This document shows, one piece after another, positions 6,729-22,525 of a stretch of DNA of 58,569 nucleotides. A program made the translations under genes and the position numbers. Positions within the stretch are counted from its first letter, which is position 1. Each line of letters starts with the position of its first letter. Where the stretch lies: NCBI GenBank assembly GCA_017518975.1, contig JAFWTH010000037.1, positions 1 through 58,569 of the forward strand, read 5' to 3'. The notes beneath the pieces were generated by a model. The model was not told where the DNA came from, did not search any database, and was given only the letters and a program-made list of their open reading frames with translations. The stretch is from Clostridia bacterium (lineage in GTDB: Bacteria > Bacillota > Clostridia > Oscillospirales > CAG-272).

Positions 6729-6773
6729 GGGGTGTATTTTTTATTCCTCCCGAACCGAAAGGAAACGAAGAAA

Positions 6774-8000
6774 ATGGATAAATCGAAGATCAAAAAGGTG
6801 GTGCTCGCCTACTCCGGAGGGCTCGACACCTCCATTATCATTCCCTGGCTCAAGGAAAACTACAACAATTGCGAAGTCATAGCCGTTTCGGGCAACGTAG
6901 GCCAGGAGGGCGAACTCGAAGGACTCGAAGAGAAAGCTCTGAAGACGGGCGCGTCGAAACTCTATATCGAGGACCTCACAGACGAATTCGTCGACGACTA
7001 CATTATCCCCACCGTCAAGGCGGGCGCTCTTTACGAGGAATACATGCTCGGCACGTCGTTCGCCCGTCCCGTCATCGCGAAGAGGATGGTCGAGATCGCT
7101 CTCGCCGAGGGAGCCGACGCTATCGCTCACGGCTGCACCGGAAAAGGCAACGACCAGGTCCGCTTCGAACTCGCGATAAAAGCGTTCGCGCCCGACATGC
7201 CCGTCATCGCTCCGTGGCGCGAGTGGAACATAAAGTCCCGTGAGGAGGAGATCGAGTACGCAGAAGCGCACAACATTCCTCTCAAGATCACGCGCGAAAC
7301 GAACTATTCAAAGGATAAGAACCTCTGGCACCTGTCCCACGAGGGACTCGACCTCGAGGACGCCGCAAACGAGCCGCTTTACGAAAAGGAAGGATTCCTC
7401 GAAATGAGCGTCTCCCCGCTCCAGGCGCCGGACGAACCCGAATATATCGAACTCGAATTCGTGAAGGGCGTGCCCGTCGCGCTGAACGGCGAGAAGAAGT
7501 CCGCCAAACAGATCATCCTCGATCTCAACAAGATCGGCGGGGAGAACGGCATCGGTCTGCTCGATATCGTCGAGAACCGCCTTGTGGGCATGAAATGCCG
7601 CGGCGTGTACGAGACCCCCGGAGGCGCGATCCTTTATGCTGCGCACAACTACCTCGAAACGGTCACGCTCGACAAGATGACCGCGCACAAAAAGCAGGAA
7701 CTTTCGATAACGTTCGCCGAACTCGTCTACAACGGCCAGTGGTTCACGCCTCTGCGTGAGGCGCTCTCCGCGTTCGTCGACGAGACGCAGAAGACGGTCA
7801 CGGGAACGGTCCGCCTCAAGCTCTACAAGGGCAATATCATCAAGGCGGGCGTTAAGAGCGACTATTCGCTCTACTCCGAGGAACTCGCTACGTTCGGCGA
7901 GGATCACATCTACAATCAGGCGGATTCCGCGGGCTTCATCAACCTCTACGGTCTTCCGATCGCCGTCAGGGCGCGCCTGAACGAAAAACTCAAAAAATAA
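6774..8000 (+). CDS. argG: Argininosuccinate synthase
   Basis: [42 protein letters not shown]; ATG 6774 after AAAGGA. Confidence 0.97.
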
Positions 8001-8028
8001 AGGTTTCTATTGTAACGGAGATTAAAAG

Positions 8029-9411
8029 ATGGAAAAGTTATGGGCGGGACGTTCGTCGGGATCCGTCGATCCGACGGCTGACGATTTCAACTCGTCGATC
8101 CGCGTCGACTCCCGGATGATCGAAGAGGATATCAAGGGCTCCGTCGCACACGCGGCAATGCTCGGCGCGAAGGGGATAATTCCCGCCGACGACGCGGAAT
8201 CGATCGTCTCGGCGCTCGGCTCGATCCTCGACGATATCAAAAGCGGCGCCCTTGAGATCGACCCCCGCGCGGAGGACGTCCACACGTTCGCGGAGTCCGT
8301 TCTGACGGAGCGGATCGGCGACGCGGGCAAAAAGCTGCACACCGCGAGGAGCCGCAACGATCAGGTGGCGGTCGACACCCGGCTTTATCTGAAAAAGGAA
8401 GCGAAGACCATCCTCGATCTGGTATACGAGCTCATCAGTACCGTCCGCGACCGCGCCGTCGAGAACAAAGAGACGGTTATGCCTGGCTACACGCACCTGC
8501 AGAGGGCGCAGCCGATAAGCTTCGGCCATCATCTTATGGCGTACGCCATGATGCTCACCCGCGACGCGGACAGGATCGCCGACGCCGTGAAGAGGATGGA
8601 CTTCTCTCCGCTCGGCGCGTGCGCACTGGCGGGAACTACGTTCGACACCGACCGCTTTATGACGGCGGAATCGCTCGGATTCACGGCTCCGACCGCGAAC
8701 AGCGTCGACTCCGTCTCCGACCGTGACTTCTGCCTCGAGCTTATGAGCGCGCTTTCGATCCTGATGATGCACCTCTCCCGCTTCTCCGAGGAGATCGTGC
8801 TGTGGTCTTCGTTCGAGTTCCGGTATATCGAACTCGACGACGCCTTCTCGACCGGGAGCAGCATTATGCCGCAGAAAAAGAACCCGGACATGGCCGAGCT
8901 CGTCAGGGGCAAGACGGGGCGCGTTTACGGCGACCTGCTCTCGCTTCTCGTTACGATGAAATCTCTTCCCCTCGCGTACAACAAAGATATGCAGGAGGAC
9001 AAGGAAGCGACGTTCGACGCGTTCGACACCGCAAAAGTCTGCCTCTCCGTCTTCACTCCGATGATAAAGACGATGAAGGTCCGCGCCGACCGGATGCTCG
9101 ACGCCGCGAAGGGCGGATTCATCACCGCCACCGACCTCGCCGACCTGCTTGCCAAAAGCGGCGTCCCGTTCCGCACGGCGTATAAGATCACGGGCGAGAT
9201 CGTATCGTACTGCATCAAGGAAAATATCACGCTTGACGGGATACCGCTTGAAAAATACCGCGAATTCTGCCCGGCGTTCGACGAGTCGCTTTACGCGGTC
9301 ATCGACCCCGCCGAGGCGATGAAAAAGAGAACGTCGTACGGCGGGACGTCGCCCGATTCGGTCGACGCGCAGGCGGAATATATCGACGCGTTCCTCGCGT
9401 CGCGCAAATAA
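8029..9411 (+). CDS. argH: Argininosuccinate lyase
   Basis: KLWAGR, HTARSRNDQ, GYTHLQRAQP, TGSSIMPQKKNPD. Confidence 0.97.
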   Translation: MEKLWAGRSSGSVDPTADDFNSSIRVDSRMIEEDIKGSVAHAAMLGAKGIIPADDAESIVSALGSILDDIKSGALEIDPRAEDVHTFAESVLTERIGDAGKKLHTARSRNDQVAVDTRLYLKKEAKTILDLVYELISTVRDRAVENKETVMPGYTHLQRAQPISFGHHLMAYAMMLTRDADRIADAVKRMDFSPLGACALAGTTFDTDRFMTAESLGFTAPTANSVDSVSDRDFCLELMSALSILMMHLSRFSEEIVLWSSFEFRYIELDDAFSTGSSIMPQKKNPDMAELVRGKTGRVYGDLLSLLVTMKSLPLAYNKDMQEDKEATFDAFDTAKVCLSVFTPMIKTMKVRADRMLDAAKGGFITATDLADLLAKSGVPFRTAYKITGEIVSYCIKENITLDGIPLEKYREFCPAFDESLYAVIDPAEAMKKRTSYGGTSPDSVDAQAEYIDAFLASRK

Positions 9412-9440
9412 CTTCAGACGTTATCAAGGACGGTAACATA

Positions 9441-10379
9441 ATGACAAAAGTATTCGTTGACGGCGGGTCGGGAACGACAGGCCTCCGGATAAAGGAGCGG
9501 CTCGCCGGAATGGACGGGATAAAGACCGTCGTTCTCCCGGACGAAGTCCGCCGCGATCCCGCGAAAAGAGCGGAAGCAGCGAACGACTCCGACGTTGTTT
9601 TCCTCTGCCTGCCCGACGACGCGGCGCGGGAATCGGTCTCGCTGATCGAAAACCCCGATACCGTCGTCATCGACACCTCGACGGCCCACAGGACCGCGGA
9701 CGGATGGGTCTACGGATTCCCGGAGTTGTCGGAGGAGCAGAGAGAACTGATAAAGACCTCGAAAAGGATCGCGAATCCCGGCTGTCACGCGAGCGGCTTC
9801 GTCGCTCTCGTCGCGCCTCTGACCGCCGCAGGGATCATCCCGAAGACCGCGCGTCTCTCGGCGACCTCGGTCACCGGTTACAGCGGCGGCGGCAAAAAGA
9901 TGATAGCGGAATACGAGGCGAAGAGCGCGGATCTGATCGCGCCGAGGATGTACGGCGTCGGGCAGACGCACAAGCACCTGCCCGAGATGAGGAAATACGG
10001 CGGAGTTTACTCCGAGCCGGTCTTCACTCCGATCGTATCGGGCTTTTACTCCGGAATGCTCGTGACCGTACCGCTGTCGTCGGACGATCTGTCCCCCGGC
10101 TTCCGGGCGTCCGATATCATCGACTGCTACCGCGGGAAATACTCGGGGCAGGTGATAAAATACGTCCCGTCCGACTCTCCCCTCTTCCCCGGCGGATTCG
10201 TCTCCGCCGCCGCCCTCTCGGGCTCCGACTCGATGGCGGTCTCCGTCTTCGGGAACGGCGAGCGGACCGTCCTCGCGGCACTTTTCGACAATCTCGGCAA
10301 GGGCGCGTCGGGCGCGGCGATCCAGTGTATGAACATATCGCTCGGAAGAAACGAAACGGACTCTCTTGAGCTTATCTGA
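9441..10379 (+). CDS. argC: N-acetyl-gamma-glutamyl-phosphate reductase (short type-2 form)
   Basis: VFVDGGSGTTGL, IANPGCH, GYSGGGK, DNLGKGASGAA. Confidence 0.95.
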   Translation: MTKVFVDGGSGTTGLRIKERLAGMDGIKTVVLPDEVRRDPAKRAEAANDSDVVFLCLPDDAARESVSLIENPDTVVIDTSTAHRTADGWVYGFPELSEEQRELIKTSKRIANPGCHASGFVALVAPLTAAGIIPKTARLSATSVTGYSGGGKKMIAEYEAKSADLIAPRMYGVGQTHKHLPEMRKYGGVYSEPVFTPIVSGFYSGMLVTVPLSSDDLSPGFRASDIIDCYRGKYSGQVIKYVPSDSPLFPGGFVSAAALSGSDSMAVSVFGNGERTVLAALFDNLGKGASGAAIQCMNISLGRNETDSLELI

Positions 10380-10394
10380 AAGGAAAACGCAACC

Positions 10395-11606
10395 ATGAAA
10401 ATGATCGAAGGCGGCGTCACCGCCGCAAAGGGCTTTACGGCGAACGGGATACATTGCGGGATAAGGAAGAGCAGGACGAAGCGCGATCTTTGCCTGATCC
10501 TCAGCGACCGACCCGCCTCGTCCGCCGCGGTATATACCTCGAACCTCGTTAAAGGCGCGCCGCTTGCCGTGACGAAAAAGAACATTGAAAACGGCGTCGC
10601 GCGAGCCGTGATATGCAACAGCGGAAACGCCAACACCTGCAACGCCGACGGCGTTGAGATCGCGGAAAAAATGTGTTCGCTGACCGCGGACGCTCTCGGG
10701 ATCGACCCGGGCGACGTTATCGTCGCCTCGACCGGGGTCATCGGAGAGCCGCTTTCGGTCGAGCCGATCGCCGCAGGAATGAGTGATCTCGTCGCGGGAC
10801 TCGGCGATCACAACGATTTCGCCGCGGAGGCGATAATGACGACGGACGTGAAGATCAAATCGTTCGCCGTCGAGTTCGATATCGGCGGCGTCACGTGCCG
10901 TCTCGGCGGTATCGCGAAGGGCTCCGGGATGATCCATCCGAACCTCGCCACGATGCTCGTCTTCATCACGACCGACTGTTCCGTCAGCGCGTCCGCGCTC
11001 CAGGCCGCGCTGCGCACCGACGTTCAAAAAACTTTCAACATGATAAGCATCGACGGGGACACCTCGACCAACGATATGGTCGCCGTCCTCGCGAACGGCG
11101 CTTCGGGATCGCCCGAGGTGACCGAGGACAGCGAGTACTTCCCGGAATTCATGAAGGCGCTCAATTCCGTCACCGTCGCTCTCTGCCGCTCCATCGCGGC
11201 TGACGGCGAGGGCGCGACTAAGCTCATCGAGTGCGCCGTGACCGGCGCGCCGGACGAGGCGTGCGCAAAAACCGCGGCGAAAGCCGTCGTCTGCTCGTCG
11301 CTGACGAAAGCGGCGATGTTCGGCGCGGACGCCAACTGGGGGCGCGTCCTCTGCGCGATCGGCTACAGCGGCGCCGCCGTGGATCCCTCAAAAATAGGCG
11401 TCGTCTTCTCGTCCCGGGCGGGCGAGGTGGAAGTCTGCCGGGACGGTTCAGGCGTCCCGTTCTCCGAGGAGATCGCGAAAGCCGTCCTCTCCGAGGACGA
11501 GATCGTGATAAAAGTCGACCTCGGCATCGGCGAAGACACAGCGACCGCGTGGGGCTGCGACCTCACTTACGATTACGTTAAGATCAACGGGGATTACCGG
11601 ACGTGA
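10395..11606 (+). CDS. argJ: Ornithine acetyltransferase / N-acetylglutamate synthase
   Basis: NSGNAN, KGSGMIHPNLATML, DGDTSTND, DGEGATK, YVKINGDYRT. Confidence 0.97.
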   Translation: MKMIEGGVTAAKGFTANGIHCGIRKSRTKRDLCLILSDRPASSAAVYTSNLVKGAPLAVTKKNIENGVARAVICNSGNANTCNADGVEIAEKMCSLTADALGIDPGDVIVASTGVIGEPLSVEPIAAGMSDLVAGLGDHNDFAAEAIMTTDVKIKSFAVEFDIGGVTCRLGGIAKGSGMIHPNLATMLVFITTDCSVSASALQAALRTDVQKTFNMISIDGDTSTNDMVAVLANGASGSPEVTEDSEYFPEFMKALNSVTVALCRSIAADGEGATKLIECAVTGAPDEACAKTAAKAVVCSSLTKAAMFGADANWGRVLCAIGYSGAAVDPSKIGVVFSSRAGEVEVCRDGSGVPFSEEIAKAVLSEDEIVIKVDLGIGEDTATAWGCDLTYDYVKINGDYRT

Positions 11607-11646
11607 CGCGTCCGGTTCCCCGAATTTCGGTTTTTTGGAGGCAGAT

Positions 11647-12516
11647 ATGACGGTTTCATCTCTTTCGAACGCCGACAGGGCGAAGATCCTCGTCGAGGCG
11701 CTCCCCTACATCCGCAAATACGTAAATAAAGTCATCGTCATCAAATACGGCGGAAACGCCATGACGAGCGACGGGCTCAAATCGGACGTGATGGGCGATA
11801 TCGTCCTGCTGACTCTGATCGGAGTCAAGGTCGTCCTCGTCCACGGCGGCGGCCCCGAGATCACCGATATGCTCGCGAAGACGGGCAAGAAGAGCGAATT
11901 CGTCGAAGGGCTCCGCGTTACCGACCGCGAGACCGTCGACATCGTTCAGATGGTCCTCGCCGGAAAGGTGAACAAGGACCTCGTCAACCTGCTCGAGACG
12001 AAGGGCGGCCGCGCCGTCGGTCTGTCCGGCATCGATGGCAGGATGATCATGGCAAAGTCCAAGGACGAGCGGCTCGGATACGTCGGCGAGATCACCAAGG
12101 TCAACCCCGCCCCCGTCTGGGATATGCTCGACCGCGGATACATCCCGGTCATCTCCACCGTCGGATGTGACGAGGAGGGAAACACGTACAACATCAACGC
12201 AGACACGGCGGCGGCGATGATCGCAGGTGCGATAAGGGCGGAGAGCTTCTTCACGCTCACCGACGTACGCGGCATACTTCGCGACAAGGACGATCCCGAG
12301 TCGATCATCCGCACCGTGAGGGCGGACGAGACGGAAGACCTCATTAAAAGCGGCGTCATCAGCGGCGGCATGATCCCGAAAGTAAGAAGCTGCACCGAAG
12401 CGATCAGATGCGGCGTCAAGCGCGTGTTCGTCATCGACGGACGCATACCGCACGCCATCCTGATCGAAATGCTCACCGACGAAGGCGTCGGAACGATGTT
12501 CACGAAAGGGGAGTGA
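11647..12516 (+). CDS. argB: Acetylglutamate kinase
   Basis: IKYGGNAM, VHGGGPEI, GLRVTD, NINAD, GGMIPK; ATG after GGAGG. Confidence 0.97.
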   Translation: MTVSSLSNADRAKILVEALPYIRKYVNKVIVIKYGGNAMTSDGLKSDVMGDIVLLTLIGVKVVLVHGGGPEITDMLAKTGKKSEFVEGLRVTDRETVDIVQMVLAGKVNKDLVNLLETKGGRAVGLSGIDGRMIMAKSKDERLGYVGEITKVNPAPVWDMLDRGYIPVISTVGCDEEGNTYNINADTAAAMIAGAIRAESFFTLTDVRGILRDKDDPESIIRTVRADETEDLIKSGVISGGMIPKVRSCTEAIRCGVKRVFVIDGRIPHAILIEMLTDEGVGTMFTKGE

Positions 12517-12521
12517 CCGCC

Positions 12522-13697
12522 GTGGCTGATACTAAATCTCTGGACAGGGAATATATCGTACCGACTTACAAAAGGTACGACGTCAATATAGTCCGCGGCA
12601 CCGGCGCGCTCCTTTACGACGAGACGGGAAAGGAATACGTCGACATGGGCGCGGGGATCGCGACGAACTCGTTCGGCGCGTGCGACCCCGTCTGGATCGC
12701 CGCGGTCGAAAAACAGCTCGGACGCATCCAGCACGCCTCGAACCTGTACTACACCGACCCTTGCGCAAAACTCGCAGAACTTCTTTGCGAAAAGACCGGA
12801 ATGAAGAAAGTGTTTTTCTGCAACTCCGGCGCGGAAGCGAACGAGTGCGCGATAAAGACGGCGCGCAAATGGGCGGCGGAGAACAAGGGAGAGGAATACT
12901 TCACCGTCGTAACGATGAAGAATTCGTTCCACGGCAGGACGCTCGCCACGCTCGCGGCGACCGGCCAGGACGTTTTTCACAAGGATTTTCTGCCCGTGAC
13001 TCCGGGGTTCGCGTACGCGGAACCCGAGGATATCGACGGGCTCCGTTCGGTTTTTGAAGATCAAAAATGCGCCGCGGTCCTTTTAGAGACCGTTCAGGGC
13101 GAAGGCGGCGTCCGCCCGCTTTCGACGGAATATCTCAAAGCCGTCGCCGCTCTTTGCGGAGAATATAACGTTCTTCTCATGATCGACGAAGTGCAGACCG
13201 GCAACGGCAGATGCGGGTATTTCTATTCGTATATGGAGCACGGGATCGAGCCCGACGCAGTAACGACGGCGAAGGGGCTCGGCGGCGGCCTTCCCGTCGG
13301 CGCGGTCCTCTTCTCGGAGAAGACGGCGGGCGTGCTCACGCCGGGAACTCACGGCTCTACGTTCGGCGGGAATCCCGTCTGCTGCGCGGGCGCCGTAAGC
13401 GTCGTCTCGCGTATCGACGGGGACTTCCTCGCGTCCGTACGCGCAAAATCGGAGAAGATTTTCAAAACGCTCACGGGCAAGCCCGGAATAAAGGGCGTAT
13501 ACGGAAGGGGCCTCCTCGTCGGCGTCGAAGTCGATGGCGAGCCCGCCGAATTCATAAACAAATGTATTGAAAAAGGAGTTCTCGTCCTCGGAGCGAAAGG
13601 CAGAGTGCGCCTCGCGCCTCCGCTCAATATCCCGGACGGGCTTCTTGACCGCGCGCTCTCAACAATAACGGCGATCGCCGCGGGGGAGGAATTATGA
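12522..13697 (+). CDS. argD: Acetylornithine aminotransferase (GTG start; 12513 also possible)
   Basis: [37 protein letters not shown]. Confidence 0.95.
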
Positions 13698-14689
13698 AAA
13701 CGGACCTCAAAGGAAGAGATTTTCTGAAACTGCTCGACTTCACGCCGGAAGAGATCGCGTATCTGCTCGACCTCGCCGCCGACCTGAAGGACAAAAAGAA
13801 AAAGGGGATACCCCACGACGCGCTCAGGGGCAAAAACGTCGCCCTGATCTTCGAGAAGACGAGCACGCGCACGCGCTGTTCGTTCGAGGTGGCGGCGCAT
13901 GACCTCGGAATGGGCGTGACGTACCTCGACCCGTCGGGGTCGCAGATCGGCAAAAAGGAATCGATCGCCGACACCGCCCGCGTCCTGTCGCGGATGTTCG
14001 ACGGAATCGAGTACCGCGGCTTCGGTCAGGAGCGCGTCGAAACGCTGGCAAAATACTCGGACGTCCCCGTGTGGAACGGTCTGACCGACGAGTTCCACCC
14101 GACGCAGATCCTCGCCGATTTCCTCACCGCGCGCGAAAAACTCGGATCGCTGCGCGGCAAAAAACTCGTCTATATGGGCGACGCGCGGTTCAATATGGGC
14201 AACTCGCTGATGGTCGGATGCGCGAAAATGGGGATGGAATTCACCGCCTGCGCCCCGCGCGAGTATTTCCCGAACAAAGGCCTTGTCGCGACCTGCAGGG
14301 AGATCGCCGCTCAGACGGGCGCGGTACTGAATTTTGAAGAGAATCCCGCGGGCGCCGTGCGCGGCGCGGATATCATATACACCGACGTCTGGGTCTCGAT
14401 GGGCGAGCCCGAGGCGGTCTGGGCGGAGCGGATCGCCGCTCTGTCGCCTTACCGCGTCGATTCCGCTCTCATGGCGGCGGCGGGCGAGAACACGATATTC
14501 ATGCACTGCCTGCCCGCTTACCACGACGCGAACACCGAGATAGGACGTAAGGTGGGCGAGGCGTTCGGCCTCGACTCGCTCGAAGTGACCGACGAAGTCT
14601 TCGAGTCGGACCGCTCCGTCGTCTTCGACGAGGCGGAGAACAGGATGCACACGATAAAAGCGGTAATGGCGGCAACTCTTCGTCATTGA
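13694..14689 (+). CDS. argF: Ornithine carbamoyltransferase
   Basis: [32 protein letters not shown]. Confidence 0.97.
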
Positions 14690-14713
14690 TCTGTCTTACG
14701 GCAGATCAATGAC

Positions 14714-14754
14714 GGATAAAATTCCCCTTTGAAATGGGACCCAACCCATTTCAT
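14714..14754. repeat. Dispersed REP-like palindromic element, copy 1
   Basis: GGATAAAATTCC..TGAAATGGGACCCAACCCATTTCAT, near-identical to 58321-58360; preceded by hairpin TCATTGATCTG..CAGATCAATGA. Confidence 0.8.
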
Positions 14755-14846
14755 TTTGCTTCGCAAAAAACAGGGGAATTTTACGCTGAAAATATAATCT
14801 TAATTTTTCGACAAGATCATTTCGGAAAAACCGAAAGGACGGCACA

Positions 14847-15938
14847 ATGAAAAAAAGGTATCTCATACTCGAATCGGGCCGCGTGTTCGAGGGGGTCGGC
14901 TTCGGCGCGGATCCCTCGCCTGACGGTACGGTCGGCGAGCTCGTATTCACGACCGGAATGTGCGGTTATCTCGAATGCATAACCGACCCGTCGTATTACG
15001 GTCAGATAGTGACGCAGACGTTCCCGATGATCGGAAACTACGGCGTGATCTCCTCCGATTTTGAGGGGTGTCCCGCCCTTTTCGGATACGTCGTCAGGGA
15101 GTGGTGTCCCGCGCCGTCGAATTTTCGTTCCGAAGGCGATATCGACTCGTTCCTCAAAGATCGCGGGATCCCCGGGATCTGCGGAGTCGACACGAGGGAG
15201 ATCACGAAACTGATCCGCGACCGCGGCGTCATGAACGCCGTCATCACGGACGGCGAGCCCGATTTTTCGCTTTATTCGCAGGCGCTTTCGTCATATAAGG
15301 TGCGGGGAGCCGTTCCCGCCGTCACCTCGACGCGCCCGAATCTTTTCCCCGCCGACGGAGACGAGAAGTTCCGCGTCGTCCTGATCGACTACGGCGCGAA
15401 AGCGGGGATAACCGCCGCGCTTCGGGCGCGGGAATGCTCCGTTCTCTCCGTCCCCGCGAACACGGACGCCGAGAGTATCCTCGAGATGAAGCCCGACGGC
15501 ATCATGCTCTCGAACGGACCCGGCGACCCGACGGAAAGGCGCGACTGCATAGAGGAACTCAAAAAGATATTCGGCAGAGTCCCGATTTTCGGTATCTGCC
15601 TCGGCCACCAGCTCCTCGCGCTCTCGACCGGCGCGCTGACGGAAAAACTGAAGTTCGGCCACCGAGGCGCGAATCAGCCCGTCCGCGACGTTAAAAGCGG
15701 CAGAACGTATATCACCTCGCAGAACCACGGCTACGCCGTGAGGGTGGGGTCGCTCCGCCGCGGAACGATGAGTTTTACAAACGCGAACGACGGAACCTGC
15801 GAGGGGATCGACTATGAAGCCGATCTCGCCTTCTCCGTTCAGTTCCACCCCGAGGCGAGAAGCGGCCCGCACGACACGGAGTTTCTTTTCGACCGGTTCG
15901 TACGGATGATGGAGGTGAGACGAAATGCCAAAGGATGA
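14847..15938 (+). CDS. carA: Carbamoyl-phosphate synthase small subunit
   Basis: TDPSYYGQI, LSNGPGDP, GICLGHQ, SQNHGY, QFHPE. Confidence 0.97.
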   Translation: MKKRYLILESGRVFEGVGFGADPSPDGTVGELVFTTGMCGYLECITDPSYYGQIVTQTFPMIGNYGVISSDFEGCPALFGYVVREWCPAPSNFRSEGDIDSFLKDRGIPGICGVDTREITKLIRDRGVMNAVITDGEPDFSLYSQALSSYKVRGAVPAVTSTRPNLFPADGDEKFRVVLIDYGAKAGITAALRARECSVLSVPANTDAESILEMKPDGIMLSNGPGDPTERRDCIEELKKIFGRVPIFGICLGHQLLALSTGALTEKLKFGHRGANQPVRDVKSGRTYITSQNHGYAVRVGSLRRGTMSFTNANDGTCEGIDYEADLAFSVQFHPEARSGPHDTEFLFDRFVRMMEVRRNAKG

Positions 15939-18900
15939 ATCGATCCGCAAGGTGATGGTCATCGGCTCCGGTCCGATCGTCATCGGTCAGGCGGCGGAGT
16001 TCGACTACGCCGGAACGCAGGCGTGCCGCGTCCTCGAAGCGGAGGGGATCGAAACGGTCCTCGTCAACTCCAATCCCGCTACCGTTATGACGGACACCGA
16101 CCTCGCGGACGAGGTATACCTCGAACCGCTCACGGTCGAGACCGTGAAAAGGATAATCAAAAAAGAAAAGCCCGACTGTCTTCTCGCCGGACTCGGCGGA
16201 CAGACGGGGCTGACTCTCGCCGTAAAGCTCTTTGAGGACGGTTTCCTCGACGAGAACGGCGTGCGCCTCATCGGCTCGAACGTCGACGCGATAAAGAAAT
16301 CGGAAGACAGACAGCTGTTCAAGGATACGATGGCGGCGATCGGCGAGCCGACGATCCCGTCCGACACCGCGCACGACGTTGAGAAATCTCTGCGGATCGC
16401 CGAAGAGATCGGATATCCCGTCATCGTCCGCCCCGCGTACACGCTCGGCGGAGGCGGGGGCGGCGTCGCAAACTGCCCCGAAGAACTCGAAACGGTCGCA
16501 GCGGCGGGTATCGCCGCGTCGCCGATCGGTCAGATACTCGTCGAAAAATATATCTACGGCTGGAAAGAAATAGAATTTGAGACGATGCGCGACGGCAAGG
16601 GCAACGTGATCGCGGTCTGCTCGATGGAGAACGTCGACCCGGTCGGCGTCCACACCGGCGACTCCGTCGTCGTCGCACCCGCGCTGACGCTCTCTGACAG
16701 GGAGTATCAGACTCTGCGCAGCGCGTCTCTGAACATCATCTCGGCGCTCGGCATTGTCGGCGGGTGCAACTGTCAGTTCGCCCTCGACCCGGAGAGCTTC
16801 GACTACGCCGTCATCGAGGTCAACCCGCGCGTGTCCAGATCGTCCGCTCTAGCCAGCAAGGCGACCGGTTACCCGATAGCGAAGATCACCGCGAAGATCG
16901 CGCTCGGCTACACGCTCGACGAGATCAAAAACGACGTGACCGGAAAGACGTGCGCCTGCTTCGAGCCCGCGCTCGACTACGTAGTCGTCAAACTCCCGAA
17001 ATGGCCGTTCGACAAGCTCCACGGCTCCTCGCGCAAGCTCGGGACGCAGATGAAGGCGACAGGCGAGGTCATGGCTATCGCGACCTCCTTCCCCGCGGCG
17101 CTCATGAAAGCCGTCCGCGGCGCGGAGATCGGAACGGAAACGCTCGGAATACGCTATTTTGAAAACAAGACGGAAGACGAACTGCTCGAAGCGGTCGGCA
17201 GCTGCGACGACAGACGGCTCTTCGCCGTTTTCGCCGCGCTCAAATCCGGGGTCTCCGTCGAAGAGATCTCAAAGATCACGCGCATCGATCCGTTCTTCGT
17301 ATCCCAGATAAAACGGCTCGCCGATTATGAAAACAGAATATCGGGTCTCTCGCTCGACTCAGCCGATTATCTCGAGGGCAAAAAGCTCGGCTACACCGAC
17401 ACGGCGCTCGACGCCCTCTCGGGATATCCGCTCCCGTGCCACCGCGAGGCGGTCTTCAGGATCGTCGACACGTGCGGAGGCGAGTTCGACGCGGAGACTC
17501 CATACTACTATTCCTCGTACGACGAGGACTGCGAGGCGCGTCACGCCGCGCGCGCTCCGGGAAAGACCGTCGTCGTTCTCGGCTCGGGACCGATCCGCAT
17601 CGGTCAGGGGATCGAGTTCGATTACTCCTCCGTCCATTGCGCAACGACGCTCCGCCGTCTCGGCTACGAGGTCGTCATCATAAACAACAACCCCGAAACG
17701 GTCTCGACCGACTACGACACGGCGGACCGGCTCTACTTCGAGCCGCTGACGCCCGAGGACGTTATGAACGTCGTCGCCGTCGAGGAACCGGTCGGCGTCG
17801 TCGTGGCGTTCGGCGGCCAGACGGCAATAAAACTCACTAAATATCTCGACTCGCGCGGAGTCAGAATTCTCGGCACGTCAGCCGAGGGGATCGACACGGC
17901 GGAGGACCGCGAACGGTTCGACTCCCTGCTCGGTTCGCTCGGTATAAAGCGGCCGCAGGGAATGGGCGTCACCGGGACCGACGAGGCGATACGCGCCGCA
18001 AACGAACTCGGATATCCCGTTCTGCTCCGTCCCTCTTACGTCATCGGCGGGCAGAATATGAGGATAGTCTACTCTGACCGCGAGGTGAGGGAGTATATGG
18101 CTCCGATCCTCGAGGCGGGAGTCGACAGTCCCGTCCTCGTCGATAAATATATGAGCGGGATCGAGCTCGAGCTCGACGTCATCTCCGACGGAGAGGACGT
18201 TCTTATCCCCGGCATAATGGAGCACGTCGAACGGGCGGGAGTCCACTCAGGCGATTCGATCGCCGTGATCCCCGCTTATAAACTGAACGACAAAATGACG
18301 TCGGTCGTCATCAGTCAGGCGACGGCGATCTCGCTCGCGCTCGGAACGCGCGGACTCGTCAACATCCAGCTTCTTATATGGCGCGGCGAACCGTACGTGA
18401 TCGAGGTCAACCCTCGCGCATCGCGCACCGTCCCGTATATCAGCAAAGTCACGGGCGTTCCGATGATCGAGCTTGCGACGCGCGTCATGGTGGGCGAAAA
18501 ACTCGCAGACATGGGGTACGGAACCGGTCTTTACAGAACTCCGCCTTACTTTGCCGTCAAAGTCCCCGTCTTCTCGTTTGAAAAACTGCCCGACGCTTTC
18601 TCCGGTCTCGGACCGGAGATGAAGTCGACGGGCGAGGTGCTCGGGATCGGCAAAGACCTCAACGAAGCGCTCTTCAAGGGAATGCGCTCGGCGGGTCTGC
18701 TCCTTCCGTCCTCTCTGCGGCGCGAGGGAGTCGGTTTCTTCCTGCATGCGGACGAAAAAGACGTCCACGAGCTTATCGACCTTGCAAAAAAACTCGACGA
18801 TCTTCATTTCACGCTATACGCGTCGGAGAGCACCGCGGAGATGATATCGAAACTCGGCGTCAGCGTGAAAGTAGTCGATGAAACGTGCGCCGACGGAAAA

Positions 18901-19974
18901 CTCCTCTCTCTTCTTGACGGCGGGGAGATCAGCTACGTCGTCTATTCCGCGCTCGAGGATGCGGACGACGTCAGGAACTTCGATACGATCCACGCCCGCG
19001 CGATCGCGCTCTCCGTGCCGTGCCTCACGTCGCTCGACACCGCGGAAGCGCTCGCCGACATCATTCTGAGCCGGTACGCCGAGCACAACACGGAGCTCGT
19101 CGACATCAACACGATGAGAAAAGAAAGGATGAAGCTTTCGTTCTCGAAGATGGAGGCGACGGGCGCCGACTATATCGTCATCGACGACCGCGACGGGACG
19201 ATCACGTGTCCCGAATCGCTCTGCATAAAACTCTGCGACCGCCACTACGGCGTCGGCGGGTACGGCATCGCCCTGATAGAGAAGCCGGACGACCCGGAGG
19301 CGCACGTCAGAATGCGTCTGTTCAACAGGGACGGAAGCGAGGGCTTCATCGCAGGGACGGGCATCCGCTCCGTCGCAAAATACGTTTACGACCGCGGGAT
19401 CGCGAAGGAGGACGTCGTCCGGATCGAAACGGCGTCCGGGATCCGTCCCGTCAGCGTCTATACCTCCGACGGCAGAGTCACGATGGCGGGAGCCGGGATG
19501 GGGCGCGCGGAATTCGCGCCCGAGAAGATCCCGTGCACTCTCGACGGGGACGAGATCGTCGACCGGAAGATCAAAATCGCGGGCGGCGAATACCGGGTCA
19601 CCTGCCTTTCCGTCGGCAACCCGCACTGCGTGGTGTTCTGCGACAGGATCGACGACCTCGATCTTGAATCGATCGGACCGAAGTTTGAAAACGACCCGAT
19701 CTTCCCGGAGCGCGTCAACACCGAATTCGTCCGCGTCGTCGACCCGACGACGCTCAGGATGCGCGTCTGGGAGCGCGGCAACGGCGAGACGTTCGCCTGC
19801 GGTACGGGCGCCTGCGCGGCAGTCGCCGCGGCGGTGAAAAACGGCGTCTGCCCGAAGGGCGAGGACATCACCGTCAAAGTCATCGGAGGCGACCTGATCG
19901 TAAACTTCACGGATGAGGAGATCACCCTCTCCGGCGACACGAAGCTCGTCTTCGACGGAGTGACTGAATATTGA
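15925..19974 (+). CDS. carB: Carbamoyl-phosphate synthase large subunit fused to a C-terminal DapF-like domain (from ~19129)
   Basis: GSGPIVIGQAAEFDY, two ATP-grasp halves, MGS-like domain, then FSKM..G.DY, DRHYGVGG, SVGNPHCV, FPERVNTEF, VWERGNGETFACGTG, all in one frame. Confidence 0.95.
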   Translation: MPKDESIRKVMVIGSGPIVIGQAAEFDYAGTQACRVLEAEGIETVLVNSNPATVMTDTDLADEVYLEPLTVETVKRIIKKEKPDCLLAGLGGQTGLTLAVKLFEDGFLDENGVRLIGSNVDAIKKSEDRQLFKDTMAAIGEPTIPSDTAHDVEKSLRIAEEIGYPVIVRPAYTLGGGGGGVANCPEELETVAAAGIAASPIGQILVEKYIYGWKEIEFETMRDGKGNVIAVCSMENVDPVGVHTGDSVVVAPALTLSDREYQTLRSASLNIISALGIVGGCNCQFALDPESFDYAVIEVNPRVSRSSALASKATGYPIAKITAKIALGYTLDEIKNDVTGKTCACFEPALDYVVVKLPKWPFDKLHGSSRKLGTQMKATGEVMAIATSFPAALMKAVRGAEIGTETLGIRYFENKTEDELLEAVGSCDDRRLFAVFAALKSGVSVEEISKITRIDPFFVSQIKRLADYENRISGLSLDSADYLEGKKLGYTDTALDALSGYPLPCHREAVFRIVDTCGGEFDAETPYYYSSYDEDCEARHAARAPGKTVVVLGSGPIRIGQGIEFDYSSVHCATTLRRLGYEVVIINNNPETVSTDYDTADRLYFEPLTPEDVMNVVAVEEPVGVVVAFGGQTAIKLTKYLDSRGVRILGTSAEGIDTAEDRERFDSLLGSLGIKRPQGMGVTGTDEAIRAANELGYPVLLRPSYVIGGQNMRIVYSDREVREYMAPILEAGVDSPVLVDKYMSGIELELDVISDGEDVLIPGIMEHVERAGVHSGDSIAVIPAYKLNDKMTSVVISQATAISLALGTRGLVNIQLLIWRGEPYVIEVNPRASRTVPYISKVTGVPMIELATRVMVGEKLADMGYGTGLYRTPPYFAVKVPVFSFEKLPDAFSGLGPEMKSTGEVLGIGKDLNEALFKGMRSAGLLLPSSLRREGVGFFLHADEKDVHELIDLAKKLDDLHFTLYASESTAEMISKLGVSVKVVDETCADGKLLSLLDGGEISYVVYSALEDADDVRNFDTIHARAIALSVPCLTSLDTAEALADIILSRYAEHNTELVDINTMRKERMKLSFSKMEATGADYIVIDDRDGTITCPESLCIKLCDRHYGVGGYGIALIEKPDDPEAHVRMRLFNRDGSEGFIAGTGIRSVAKYVYDRGIAKEDVVRIETASGIRPVSVYTSDGRVTMAGAGMGRAEFAPEKIPCTLDGDEIVDRKIKIAGGEYRVTCLSVGNPHCVVFCDRIDDLDLESIGPKFENDPIFPERVNTEFVRVVDPTTLRMRVWERGNGETFACGTGACAAVAAAVKNGVCPKGEDITVKVIGGDLIVNFTDEEITLSGDTKLVFDGVTEY

Positions 19975-19978
19975 GAGT

Positions 19979-20005
19979 TTATCCCCCCGCAAAACGGGGG
20001 GATAA
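19979..20005 (+). terminator. Hairpin ending the arg-car operon
   Basis: TTATCCCCCCG-CAAAA-CGGGGGGATAA right after the stop. Confidence 0.7.
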
Positions 20006-20188: not shown

Positions 20189-20986
20189 TTGAAACCGGAA
20201 AAATCGTATCGCGGGACCGTAAAACGCGCGGCGGGGATCGCCCTGACGGCGCTGGCGCTCGCCGCGGCGGGAGGGATCGTTTTGTTCGGACTGTTCGGAT
20301 GTTTCAAAAAAGCGCCTGAGTACAAAATTGACTTCTCTGGGGAGGAGTCGTGGTACGAGGGGGCAAAAAAAACGTACCGCGAGGGAGAGACGGTCACGCT
20401 GTACTATAATCTCATCGCGACGGACACAGACTACAAATTTCTGCTCGACGGAGAACCGATAAACTTCGGTTACGACGACGAACGCGGCTTCGTGATAACG
20501 TTCGCCATGCCCGCGCACGACGTAAAACTCGAGTGCCAAACGAAGAACTCGATGGAGTACGTTCCCGAAGTCGTCCCGGATATCCTTCTTTTCGATTACT
20601 ATTCCGCGACGACGGGAACGGACGGATACGACAGCAGCACGGAGATCACGCTCTCGACTTACTCGGGCGAATCCCACCGCCTGTCCGTTTTCGAAAAAGC
20701 GTCCCCCGACGCTGAGGAAACGAGGACCGATTATCTCGTCCCCGTCGAGTTGTCCGAAAAGTGTTACCGCGCCGTCTTTGAGTACGGTATGAACGAATGG
20801 GCGGGCCGGGACGACCTCGAGCCGATCGACGGCGCGCTCGTCGTTCTTAAATACAGAGAAGGCGACGATTACGTCCGGCTGTCGTCCGACGCCGCGCCGC
20901 CCGGCGGGATCGCCGAGATGGATTCGATCGGCGTCATGCTGAGAGAATACGCGTCCCCGGATTATCTCGAGGAGGGACGGGAATGA
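20189..20986 (+). CDS. Putative lipoprotein or membrane-anchored protein with a B-repeat-like (beta-grasp) domain
   Basis: Basic N-terminus, hydrophobic stretch and LFGC lipobox-like motif; GETVTL...FAMPAHDVKL resembles InlB-B-type repeats. Confidence 0.6.
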   Translation: MKPEKSYRGTVKRAAGIALTALALAAAGGIVLFGLFGCFKKAPEYKIDFSGEESWYEGAKKTYREGETVTLYYNLIATDTDYKFLLDGEPINFGYDDERGFVITFAMPAHDVKLECQTKNSMEYVPEVVPDILLFDYYSATTGTDGYDSSTEITLSTYSGESHRLSVFEKASPDAEETRTDYLVPVELSEKCYRAVFEYGMNEWAGRDDLEPIDGALVVLKYREGDDYVRLSSDAAPPGGIAEMDSIGVMLREYASPDYLEEGRE

Positions 20987-21480
20987 GAGAGAATAAAAAA
21001 GACGGCGGGAAATACCCGTGGATAAAAAGCGTTTTCAAAAAGAGAAAAAAAGACCCCGTACGCGGAGCGGAAGGGGTTTACGCGGGTCCGGACTATTTCA
21101 GGGACGGACCGGGCGAATCGAAAAAAATCTACGCGGGACCCGAGTTTTATAAAAAGAAAGAAGATCCGTCAGACAACTCCCGCCCGGTCGGGGACGTCTA
21201 CGCGGGGCCTGAATTCTTTGAGGGCGAACCGGACGGCCTTGTGAAGGCGATCTACTCCGCTCCGGTATTCCCGGAAAGACCTCAGGAGCCGCCCGTAATG
21301 TGCGTTTACGCGGGACCCGAGTATTTCTCGCAGCGTCGGGACGGCGCTCCGGTCGGCGTGGCGCAGCCGCAGGAAAAAGACTGCGACGGATCTCCGCGCT
21401 GCGCCTTCTGCGGGACACGGACGCCCGACGGCGCGAAATTCTGCCCGGAATGCGGGACCCGTCTGACGAACGATGAGTGA
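20983..21480 (+). CDS. Putative rSAM substrate: five YAGP-type repeats plus C-terminal zinc ribbon
   Basis: GVYAGPDYF, KIYAGPEFY, DVYAGPEFF, AIYSAPVFP, CVYAGPEYF; CAFCG-x9-FCPECG; ATGA overlap with the upstream gene, GGAGGG RBS. Confidence 0.8.
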   Translation: MRENKKDGGKYPWIKSVFKKRKKDPVRGAEGVYAGPDYFRDGPGESKKIYAGPEFYKKKEDPSDNSRPVGDVYAGPEFFEGEPDGLVKAIYSAPVFPERPQEPPVMCVYAGPEYFSQRRDGAPVGVAQPQEKDCDGSPRCAFCGTRTPDGAKFCPECGTRLTNDE

Positions 21481-22525
21481 CCGGATAAAGGGAAGCGAAT
21501 TCCCGTTCCGCCTTCGCTCCTGCGTGTGGGAGATAACCCTCGCGTGCTGTTTCCGGTGCGCATACTGCGGCTCGCGCGGAGGTGTCGCGAGAGAGAACGA
21601 ACTCTCGACGGAGGAGTGTCTTGACGTCGCCGAACAGCTCGCCGATTTGGGCTGCCGCCGCGTCTCCATGATCGGAGGCGAGGTCTTCATGCGTCCCGAC
21701 TGGGAGCAGATCGTCGGCGCGCTGACGTCCCGCGGCGTTATCACGTGCATCATAACGAACGGATTCCGCATGACGGAACCTGTGATCGCCGCCCTGAAGC
21801 GCGTCGGGATCGAATCGGTCGCCGTCTCGATCGACGGGGTCGCCGAGGTTCACGACAAATACCGCCTGGCGGGCAGTTACGAGAGCGCGATGGCTGCGCT
21901 TGACGTCCTCTCCGAGGCGGGGATACCCGTCTCCGTAATCAGCGCGCTCCGCGCGGACAACGCCCCGCGCCTGTCCGAGCTTTACGAAATACTCAAAACG
22001 AAGAATATCTTCGCGTGGCAGATCCAGGCGTGCTCTCCGATGGGCAACGCCGCGGGCGGATCCGTCGACGTCGGATTCGACGCCTCGGAGGTCATAAAAT
22101 TCGTCGCCGAAAACGCGGGACGCGACCCGTTTTATATCGGGATCGCGGACAATATCGGTTACCACACCCCCGAGGAAGCGAAGATCCGCGGGAGGCGCGG
22201 CCTCGTTTTCGAGGGCTGCTCCGCCGGGCTGACAACGCTCGGGATAGACAGCGTCGGAAACGTCCGCGGCTGCGAGTCGATGTACGACGAACGGTTCAAC
22301 GAGGGCAATCTCAGAGAGAGATCGCTCAGAGACATCTGGTGCGATCCCGACACGTTCGCTTACAACAGGAAATTCACTCCCGATATGCTCGCGGGCGGAT
22401 GCGCGGGATGCCCGAAGGGAGACGTATGCGCGGGCGGATGCCGCTCGTACAACTGGTTCACGACGGGAGGACTCTACGAAAACGCGCTTTGCCCCCGCCG
22501 CGGGATAAATGTGAACAACGAATGA
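21473..22525 (+). CDS. Radical SAM/SPASM peptide or protein maturase (splicease-like)
   Basis: VWEITLA-CxxxCxxC-GSRGG, ELSTEE, IGGE, SIDG, ADNIGY, GCSAG...GNVRGC, CxxCx5CxxxC SPASM cysteines; 8-nt overlap with the repeat gene. Confidence 0.9.
   Translation: MSDRIKGSEFPFRLRSCVWEITLACCFRCAYCGSRGGVARENELSTEECLDVAEQLADLGCRRVSMIGGEVFMRPDWEQIVGALTSRGVITCIITNGFRMTEPVIAALKRVGIESVAVSIDGVAEVHDKYRLAGSYESAMAALDVLSEAGIPVSVISALRADNAPRLSELYEILKTKNIFAWQIQACSPMGNAAGGSVDVGFDASEVIKFVAENAGRDPFYIGIADNIGYHTPEEAKIRGRRGLVFEGCSAGLTTLGIDSVGNVRGCESMYDERFNEGNLRERSLRDIWCDPDTFAYNRKFTPDMLAGGCAGCPKGDVCAGGCRSYNWFTTGGLYENALCPRRGINVNNE

Follow-up and report, generated by a model that had tools for sequence, protein, structure and literature searches.

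A diaminopimelate epimerase domain lacking its first catalytic cysteine is fused to the carbamoyl-phosphate synthase subunit CarB and conserved in Clostridia

The contig JAFWTH010000037.1 of the Clostridia bacterium assembly GCA_017518975.1 (Oscillospirales; CAG-272) was analysed over its whole length of 58,569 nucleotides, referred to here as the window. On its forward strand, a single open frame at 15925..19974 encodes a stop-free translation of 1349 amino acids (aa), in which the complete large subunit of carbamoyl-phosphate synthase (CPS), CarB, is followed by a complete domain of the diaminopimelate (DAP) epimerase family, DapF. Both are textbook enzymes, CPS as an example of allostery and DapF as a two-cysteine epimerase, the latter also being an antibiotic target. 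Residues 1-1049 match the CarB profiles NF003671 (1385 bits, cut-off 599) and TIGR01369 (1358 bits, cut-off 1027), and the two ATP-grasp halves, the oligomerisation domain and the MGS-like allosteric domain are all present (Pfam D1, D2, D3 and MGS). Residues 1072-1347 match the DapF profile TIGR00652 with 241.7 bits in the context of the whole protein and 246.9 bits as a domain alone (cut-off 114.65). This alignment spans profile positions 2-268 of 270, and Pfam PF01678 matches in two stretches. The initial annotation, made from the letters alone, had described an uninterrupted frame running from CarB into a DapF fold of approximately 280 aa, which is borne out by the stop-free frame and the profile matches. 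The fused gene is the last of nine same-strand genes at 6732-19974, in the order argG, argH, argC, argJ, argB, argD, argF, carA and carB-dapF, which were assigned gene by gene by NCBIfam matches above cut-off (Table 1).

The fused domain is 45% identical to the genome's own DapF. Its first-cysteine motif reads FNRDGSEGFIAGTGIRS as compared with FNADGSEGKMCGNGIRC in the latter. When the codons were checked in the DNA, every coordinate and residue of the initial annotation proved right, including the loss of the first cysteine (codon 19351), the change of GND to GAD and the intact ACGTG (Cys at 19798). Canonical DapF works with a pair of catalytic cysteines (Cys73 and Cys217 in Haemophilus influenzae numbering), only the second of which is present here. 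According to PMC8225329, N11 of the H. influenzae enzyme binds the reacting amino group of DAP, whereas the reacting carboxylate is bound by G74, N75, G218 and S219, as cited there from the H. influenzae structure. The same source assigns the far carboxylate to N64, N157, N190 and R209 and the far amino group to E208, and gives an activity of less than 0.1% for Cys-to-Ser mutants of DapF-type enzymes. Translated to the fused domain, N11 has become Ala1081 and N75 has become Thr1145, while G1144, G1293 and T1294 are retained. The set at the far L-end is complete, with N1134, N1232, N1265, E1283 and R1284. Hence, the reacting-end group of the window is damaged on the N-lobe side and the far-end group is intact. 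The domain is a member of the DapF family in sequence and fold; since it lacks the cysteine pair and part of the substrate site, however, it should not be annotated as a functional DAP epimerase.

Compared with canonical DapF (EC 5.1.1.7; TIGR00652, PF01678; PDB 2otn, 9mro, 1gqz/2gke), the domain has the same two-lobed fold, with 36% identity to 2otn over the structural alignment, and has the second cysteine motif and the far-end residues in common with it. It differs in carrying Ala for the first cysteine, Ala for the amino-binding Asn and Thr for the adjacent Asn, and in being joined to CarB. Position 73 is also changed in the H. influenzae DapF C73S and C217S mutants (PDB 2q9h, 2q9j), as it is in the natural Ala1143, but these are laboratory mutants of a free enzyme. 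Residue 1146 (codon 19360), three positions after the lost cysteine, is Gly in the window and Cys (G>T) in sequencing runs X5 and X17 and in the genome G153. A cysteine at this position, found as AGNC in many relatives, was considered as a replacement for the lost one and rejected, since Cys, Ser, Ala, Asn and Gly all occur there among the fusions and the window has Gly.

Table 1. Positions of the fused gene, its functional residues and the neighbouring features in the window
Feature	Position	Strand	Evidence
argG	6732-8000	+	NCBIfam
argH	8029-9411	+	NCBIfam
argC	9441-10379	+	NCBIfam
argJ	10395-11606	+	NCBIfam
argB	11635-12516	+	NCBIfam
argD	12408-13697	+	NCBIfam
argF	13694-14689	+	NCBIfam
carA, CPS small subunit; 3′ end overlaps start of fused gene	14847..15938	+	NF009475 420.9 bits, TIGR01368 404.8 bits
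CarB part of fused gene, residues 1-1054	15925..19086	+	NF003671 1385 bits over residues 1-1049
MGS-like allosteric domain, residues 949-1035	18769-19029	+	Pfam PF02142
Junction NTELVDINTMRKER, residues 1055-1068, without stop codon	19087..19128	+	Alignment of 74 fusions
DapF-derived domain, residues 1069-1349	19129..19971	+	TIGR00652 246.9 bits
Ala1081 (GCC) in place of Asn (N11 of H. influenzae DapF); GND reads GAD	19165-19167	+	Sequence and alignments
Span of far L-end DAP residues: N1134 (19324), N1232 (19618), N1265 (19717), E1283-R1284 (19771-19776)	19324..19776	+	
Ala1143 (GCA) where DapF has its first catalytic Cys (Cys73)	19351-19353	+	Sequence and alignments
Gly1144, matching Gly74, retained between Ala1143 and Thr1145	within 19351..19359	+	Sequence
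Thr1145 (ACG) in place of Asn75; CGNG reads AGTG	19357-19359	+	Sequence and alignments
Second catalytic Cys motif Cys1292-Gly1293-Thr1294, intact; Cys1292 = TGC 19798-19800, in ACGTG	19798..19806	+	Sequence
Stop codon of fused gene	19972-19974	+	Sequence
G+C-rich inverted repeat (CCCCCCG ... CGGGGGG) just past the stop	19983..20001	+	Read by eye, without terminator scan

The fusion is neither an error nor peculiar to this genome. Contigs of three separate DNA studies (X1, X4 and X5) bridge the junction without indels, and the frameshift that the initial annotation had named among possible objections was seen in none of them. The contig from X1 has 0 differences to the window and may come from the source sample. 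Positions 19099-19281 are also covered by a contig of an RNA library; as DNA can occur in such libraries, this is weak evidence of expression. The same frame and junction are present in same-genus genomes. In two of these the start-like Met1069 is Ser, and the domain is therefore not separately translated there. Near-identical sequence occurs in gut metagenome runs of 13 studies with labels including sheep, goat and bovine gut, which suggests that the organism is from the ruminant gut. Of these runs, X1, X4, X5 and X17 were compared with the window along its positions.

DapF matches were found in 123 of the 151 genomes sampled from the order. Among the 150 matches listed for the order, at least 64 are the continuation of CarB within open frames of 625-1547 aa; 23 further matches fall outside this listing. 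Elsewhere in the class, long frames were seen for 27 of the 150 listed matches, with 71 further matches outside the listing, and all 20 of those fetched, which belong to other families, carry the junction motif. In an alignment of 74 fusions (A2), this motif, NTELVDINxMRxxR, is invariant or nearly so: N1055, T1056, E1057 and L1058 do not vary at all, and V1059-N1062 and R1065 reach at least 90% conservation. When residues 1040-1349 were compared with the databases, nearly all of the 120 best matches proved to be proteins of 1333-1381 aa with CarB and DapF Pfam domains, the exceptions being two partial records of 798 and 1001 aa. None of these fusions, whether among the 64 from the order, the 20 fetched from the class or the 120 database matches, is interrupted by a stop or a frameshift. 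Judged from these comparisons, the fusion is old and widespread in the class. The architecture is thus present in public databases, where such records, if named, are called 'carbamoyl-phosphate synthase large subunit', but it is not described in the literature searched: no account of a CarB-DapF fusion or of a DapF pseudoenzyme was found there, coverage of subscription journals being thin. A search for free-standing DapF proteins lacking the cysteine returned 120 best short DapF-type proteins, 118 of which are without the first Cys. Many of these look like pieces of fusions because they carry the CarB allosteric domain PF02142 or sit on contigs of approximately 1-3 kb. A few, of 272-284 aa and on longer contigs, could be real or could be gene calls from an internal start.

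The cysteine loss reaches far beyond the window. Among the 120 nearest database fusions the first cysteine is absent throughout (115 Ala, 5 Gly) and the second is always present, while the GND position reads GDD or SDD in 104, GND in 13 and GAD in 2, with one unaligned. In the order, 11 of the 64 fusions keep the first cysteine and 53 have replaced it (Ala 31, Gly 13, Ser 6, Thr 1, Phe 1 and Tyr 1). The second cysteine is retained in 59 of the 64 and is Ser in the remaining genomes, G005, G035, G036, G102 and G109. Across the 74 aligned fusions, Cys1292 and Gly1293 were scored as invariant and Thr1294 as at least 90% conserved. Fusions of the class outside the order have the first cysteine in 14 of the 20 fetched and lack it in 6. 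Standalone DapF proteins carried both cysteines in all 27 examined at first and in the 29 fetched later. The initial annotation had asked whether the loss is clade-wide; it holds for the nearest database relatives throughout, but more distant fusions keep the first cysteine.

In a maximum-likelihood tree of 91 DapF domains (IQ-TREE, LG+G4, quick search without bootstraps), the 64 fused domains fall together, with two standalone sequences at the base of their side on weakly supported branches, and 25 standalone DapF fall on the opposite side. Within the fused side, 50 of the fusions lacking the first cysteine form one group (SH-aLRT 85), whose sister group of 12 comprises nine cysteine-keeping fusions and three more without it. 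The Cys-less state requires at least four changes on this tree. The window falls in a sub-group in which N11 was changed to Asp; its genus then went on to Ala. Terminal branches of the Cys-less fusions are no longer than those of standalone DapF. The tree pattern thus indicates that the fusion came first, with a working epimerase, and that the cysteine was lost later and more than once; on this phylogeny, loss of the first cysteine is secondary and recurrent. The two-Cys CarB-DapF fusions of the same order and class have the architecture, the junction motif and the clade of the DapF tree in common with the window, but retain Cys73 and N11, and are probably truly bifunctional. Since many fusions keep both cysteines and are the sole DapF match of their genome, the ancestral protein was probably a bifunctional CarB-DapF as well.

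The genome of the window (2.51 Mb, 96% complete) has other means of making meso-DAP. On another contig it carries a canonical dapF (286.5 bits) with GND, CGNG and ACGTG intact, directly followed by a gene for the LL-DAP aminotransferase DapL (TIGR03542, 477.5 bits, cut-off 364.7). The separate dapF for which the initial annotation had proposed to look is thus present in the same genome, with both cysteines and next to DapL. With both genes present, LL-DAP is made in the cell and a normal epimerase is available to convert it. The meso-DAP dehydrogenase Ddh makes meso-DAP without an epimerase; it was looked for in the genome of the window and was not found. In the wider comparison, Ddh was called by TIGR01921 above cut-off and in most genomes with a standalone DapF was not searched. 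Among the 53 Cys-less fusions of the order, 38 lie in genomes with a two-Cys standalone DapF and 14 of the other 15 in genomes with Ddh. The six outside the order comprise two in genomes with a second, uninspected DapF match (G296 and G276) and four in genomes with Ddh. Altogether, another route to meso-DAP is present in the genomes of 58 of the 59 Cys-less fusions, although these genomes are related and the counts, taken without phylogenetic correction, are not independent trials.

Cysteine-keeping fusions have a different genomic setting. Outside the order, 13 of 14 are the sole DapF match of their genome. Among the 11 in the order, four (in G001, G057, G080 and G119) are in genomes in which no other DapF or Ddh was found, and five are in genomes with Ddh. 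Two cases stand outside the redundancy pattern. In G033 (97% complete, 130 contigs) neither standalone DapF nor Ddh was found despite a Cys-less fusion. In G005 (locus L085, G005:C37; 90% complete) the first cysteine is kept, the second is Ser, and no other DapF and no Ddh was found. The genome G089 (locus L012, G089:C29:2121-5942) contains a two-Cys fusion with a standalone dapF immediately adjoining and may show the stage of duplication that preceded the loss of catalysis. This comparison gives good support to the claim that the cell no longer uses the domain as its epimerase, the arguments being the separate canonical dapF and a cysteine loss found almost only beside DapF or Ddh. On the evidence of gene content, the fused copy is not the housekeeping epimerase of the genome and is redundant for DAP epimerisation.

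Despite the lost cysteine, the domain is maintained. We compared the window with four same-genus genomes (10 pairs, Nei-Gojobori method; domain protein identity 78-91%) and obtained ratios of non-synonymous to synonymous substitution (dN/dS) of 0.04-0.22 in the domain and of 0.05-0.29 in the adjoining 179-500 CarB codons. Sites conserved at 90% or more number 74 in the Cys-less fusions and 75 in standalone DapF, with 53 common to both. Purifying selection and site conservation together make neutral decay very unlikely, and the neutral evolution that the initial annotation had listed as a counter-argument was not seen. The equivalents of N64, N157, N190, E208 and R209 are retained in all 64 fusions of the order, including four Cys-less ones without the second cysteine, and are invariant in the alignment A2; that of H159 is retained in 63 of the 64. 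Sites relaxed in Cys-less fusions as compared with standalone DapF include the HG before GND, N11, the Met before the first Cys, this Cys itself and the Cys of IRC, and they cluster on the reacting-end side of the N-lobe. Five sites look newly fixed in the Cys-less fusions. As these residues are already in the majority in the cysteine-keeping fusions, they mark the fusion clade and not a new activity, and the comparison of site conservation between Cys-less and Cys-keeping fusions revealed no newly evolved catalytic site.

An AF2 model of residues 922-1349, built from an alignment of 64 fusions (A1), has a mean pLDDT of 88 and a pTM of 0.68, with most of the DapF-like part above 90. The top Foldseek matches of this model are DapF structures. 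The best, 9mro_A, contains a bound DAP analogue and superimposes with a TM of 0.92 and a root-mean-square deviation of 1.6, so the predicted structure resembles a ligand-bound DapF. By sequence, the nearest solved chains are DapF (2otn, 1e-59) and then O-ureidoserine racemase (6e-36). Prediction of a complex between CarB residues 553-1062 and the domain (1069-1349) gave no answer (score 0.00, mark 0.32, controls not run).

The genome also encodes a second, unfused CarB of 1058 aa that is 47% identical to the fused one (G000:C31:16002-19127; locus L103 3997-7173). The open reading frame (ORF) immediately 5′ of it has no NCBIfam match at 1e-10, and a carA partner was not located there. The initial annotation had implied an arginine-specific synthetase. 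This is not general: fused CarB is the sole CarB in 21 of 33 fusion genomes checked, a set to which the window's own genome does not belong, and is accompanied by an unfused CarB in 12. The fusion is therefore not tied to an arginine-specific paralogue, and the idea that the fused synthetase is always such a paralogue was rejected. Downstream of the fused gene, the inverted repeat is a possible end of the operon. Further on, a 165-aa ORF (20983-21480) contains four YAGP(D/E)(Y/F)(F/Y) repeats and two CxxC pairs at its C-terminal end. It is overlapped and directly followed by a radical SAM/SPASM protein (21473-22525; best match TIGR04103, 243 bits, below the cut-off of 725). By their arrangement the two may be a peptide precursor and its maturase.

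What, then, is the domain kept for? The initial annotation had suggested an amino-acid sensor or a one-base enzyme. Judged by which residues are conserved, binding or regulation without catalysis is the more likely role and a new enzyme the less likely one, although this is not proof. In our judgement the balance is even for the proposal that the domain, dead as an epimerase, serves the synthetase in some other capacity, of which binding of a ligand or regulation is the most likely. In such a role, the fused domain would no longer epimerise DAP, but its two-lobed clamp would still close on DAP or a DAP-like L-amino acid. Via the short conserved linker to the allosteric domain, the clamp would then have a stabilising or tuning effect on the synthetase. 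Candidate ligands are lysine, ornithine, arginine and citrulline, because they share the L-amino-acid end of DAP. The second role should already have been present in the ancestral bifunctional fusion, since the domain would otherwise have been lost once its chemistry became dispensable. We only tentatively put forward a narrower version, possible rather than probable, in which the domain has been a clamp-type amino-acid sensor since the original fusion and closure of its lobes on DAP or a lysine-like ligand is relayed by a rigid linker to the allosteric domain of CPS. A precedent is provided by Escherichia coli DapF, which according to PMC6061791 binds and activates RppH by contact (PDB 6d13). 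By analogy, a DapF fold would in both cases modulate an unrelated enzyme apart from its epimerase chemistry. In E. coli, however, DapF is free and active and its partner is an RNA pyrophosphohydrolase, whereas the domain of the window is covalently placed on CPS, lacks one cysteine and has only a proposed contact with CarB.

Several observations weigh against a binding or regulatory role. CPS works without the domain, as seen from the unfused CarB in the same genome and from the fact that no fusion was seen in the majority of the genomes sampled from the order. In the clade of the window the pocket has been altered (N75 to Thr) to a greater extent than in the remaining fusions without the first cysteine. 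Among the 53 Cys-less fusions 49 have Cys1292, a residue for which a module that only binds has no obvious use. In the AF2 model, confidence is lowest in the linker (pLDDT 55-78), the pTM does not exceed 0.68, and no fixed docking is predicted. The link between the domain and CPS activity is itself inferred from sequence comparison. Finally, in the same-genus genome G151 (C107:29662-30503, locus L096), the domain is in two pieces with a frame change near domain residue 226-228, which may be an assembly error or may be a real break and a sign that the domain can be lost.

The retained Cys1292 is the natural starting point for a different explanation, a one-base enzyme in which this cysteine alone takes a proton from one face of a DAP-like substrate, for example in a beta-elimination or dehydration. 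Cys1292 stands in an ERGxGET..CGTG motif that is found in those 49 fusions and in all 120 nearest database fusions, the far-end substrate site is intact and the domain is under purifying selection. The trans-3-hydroxy-L-proline dehydratases, members of the proline racemase family in which one catalytic cysteine is replaced, would be a parallel, with a one-base reaction carried out on a two-Cys racemase scaffold. Two of these single-Cys relatives of the fold, 6r76 and 4k7g, appear in the list of structural matches (Foldseek ranks 27 and 34) and have the same superfold, but they belong to another family with another substrate, are only 15-16% identical and carry a specific replacement residue. 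The specific conserved replacement and the adapted pocket of a one-Cys enzyme were not found in the fused domains, whose likeness to 6r76 (15% identity) is at the level of the fold only. Replacement of the first cysteine by any of six residues (Ala, Gly, Ser, Thr, Phe or Tyr) speaks against a one-base enzyme, as does the variation of the Asn for the reacting amino group (Asn 34, Asp 17, Ala 1, Ser 1). Moreover, no residue is newly fixed only in the Cys-less fusions, and at least three lineages (G035; G036 with G102; G109) have lost the second cysteine too, with the domain and its far-end site retained. As the arginine operon context suggests no candidate substrate either, we consider a one-base enzyme quite unlikely. 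An epimerase that still works, using another residue or water as the second acid/base, hardly comes into question. Its family score is far above cut-off, a cysteine lies three residues past the lost one in many relatives, and strains of this very species vary between Gly and Cys at residue 1146. However, the window has Gly there and its relatives have Cys, Ser, Ala, Asn or Gly, the Cys-to-Ser mutants referred to above are practically inactive, and the Cys-less fusions, with a single exception, sit beside another meso-DAP route, whereas fusions that are the sole route found keep Cys73.

If no chemistry is left, the domain might be purely structural and entrenched, binding no ligand but needed by the synthetase for folding, solubility or assembly, for instance through a dimer contact of the DapF type. 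Its survival of catalytic death in several independent lineages, the purifying selection over the whole domain with its 74 conserved sites and the conserved linker would all be expected, and damage would be costly because in most fusion genomes checked no other CarB exists. A scaffold alone does not predict the split between a far-end pocket that is invariant in 64 of 64 fusions and a reacting-end pocket that drifts, and unfused CarB proteins, including that of this genome, fold and work. We therefore regard a purely structural domain as unlikely. Far less probable is a decaying relic, a redundant domain drifting toward loss with no function left. The redundancy of the epimerase function, the second cysteine lost in some lineages and the frame break in G151 would fit decay, but this reading is largely refuted by dN/dS values equal to those of the adjoining essential CarB sequence. 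It is also at odds with the unbroken frames of the order, class and database fusions and with end-branch lengths similar to those of standalone DapF. One stop codon would be enough to delete the domain, but it has been kept throughout a clade that comprises 50 of the sampled Cys-less fusions.

The covalent union of CarB and DapF is common in gut Clostridia. Such domains score as DapF and could be miscounted as epimerases in pathway reconstructions. If the proposed sensor were real, carbamoyl-phosphate and arginine synthesis would be tied to the pool of lysine or cell-wall precursors, and repeated death of the epimerase with an intact binding half-site would be a natural experiment exposing a hidden regulatory role. 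That catalysis was lost repeatedly and in step with redundancy, while the domain was retained in full, suggests a second function of DapF on CPS that has yet to be described. If this second function holds, the supply of arginine and pyrimidine precursors in abundant bacteria of the rumen and gut would gain a new regulatory input, and the domain would be a clean natural example of an enzyme domain turned into a pseudoenzyme module.

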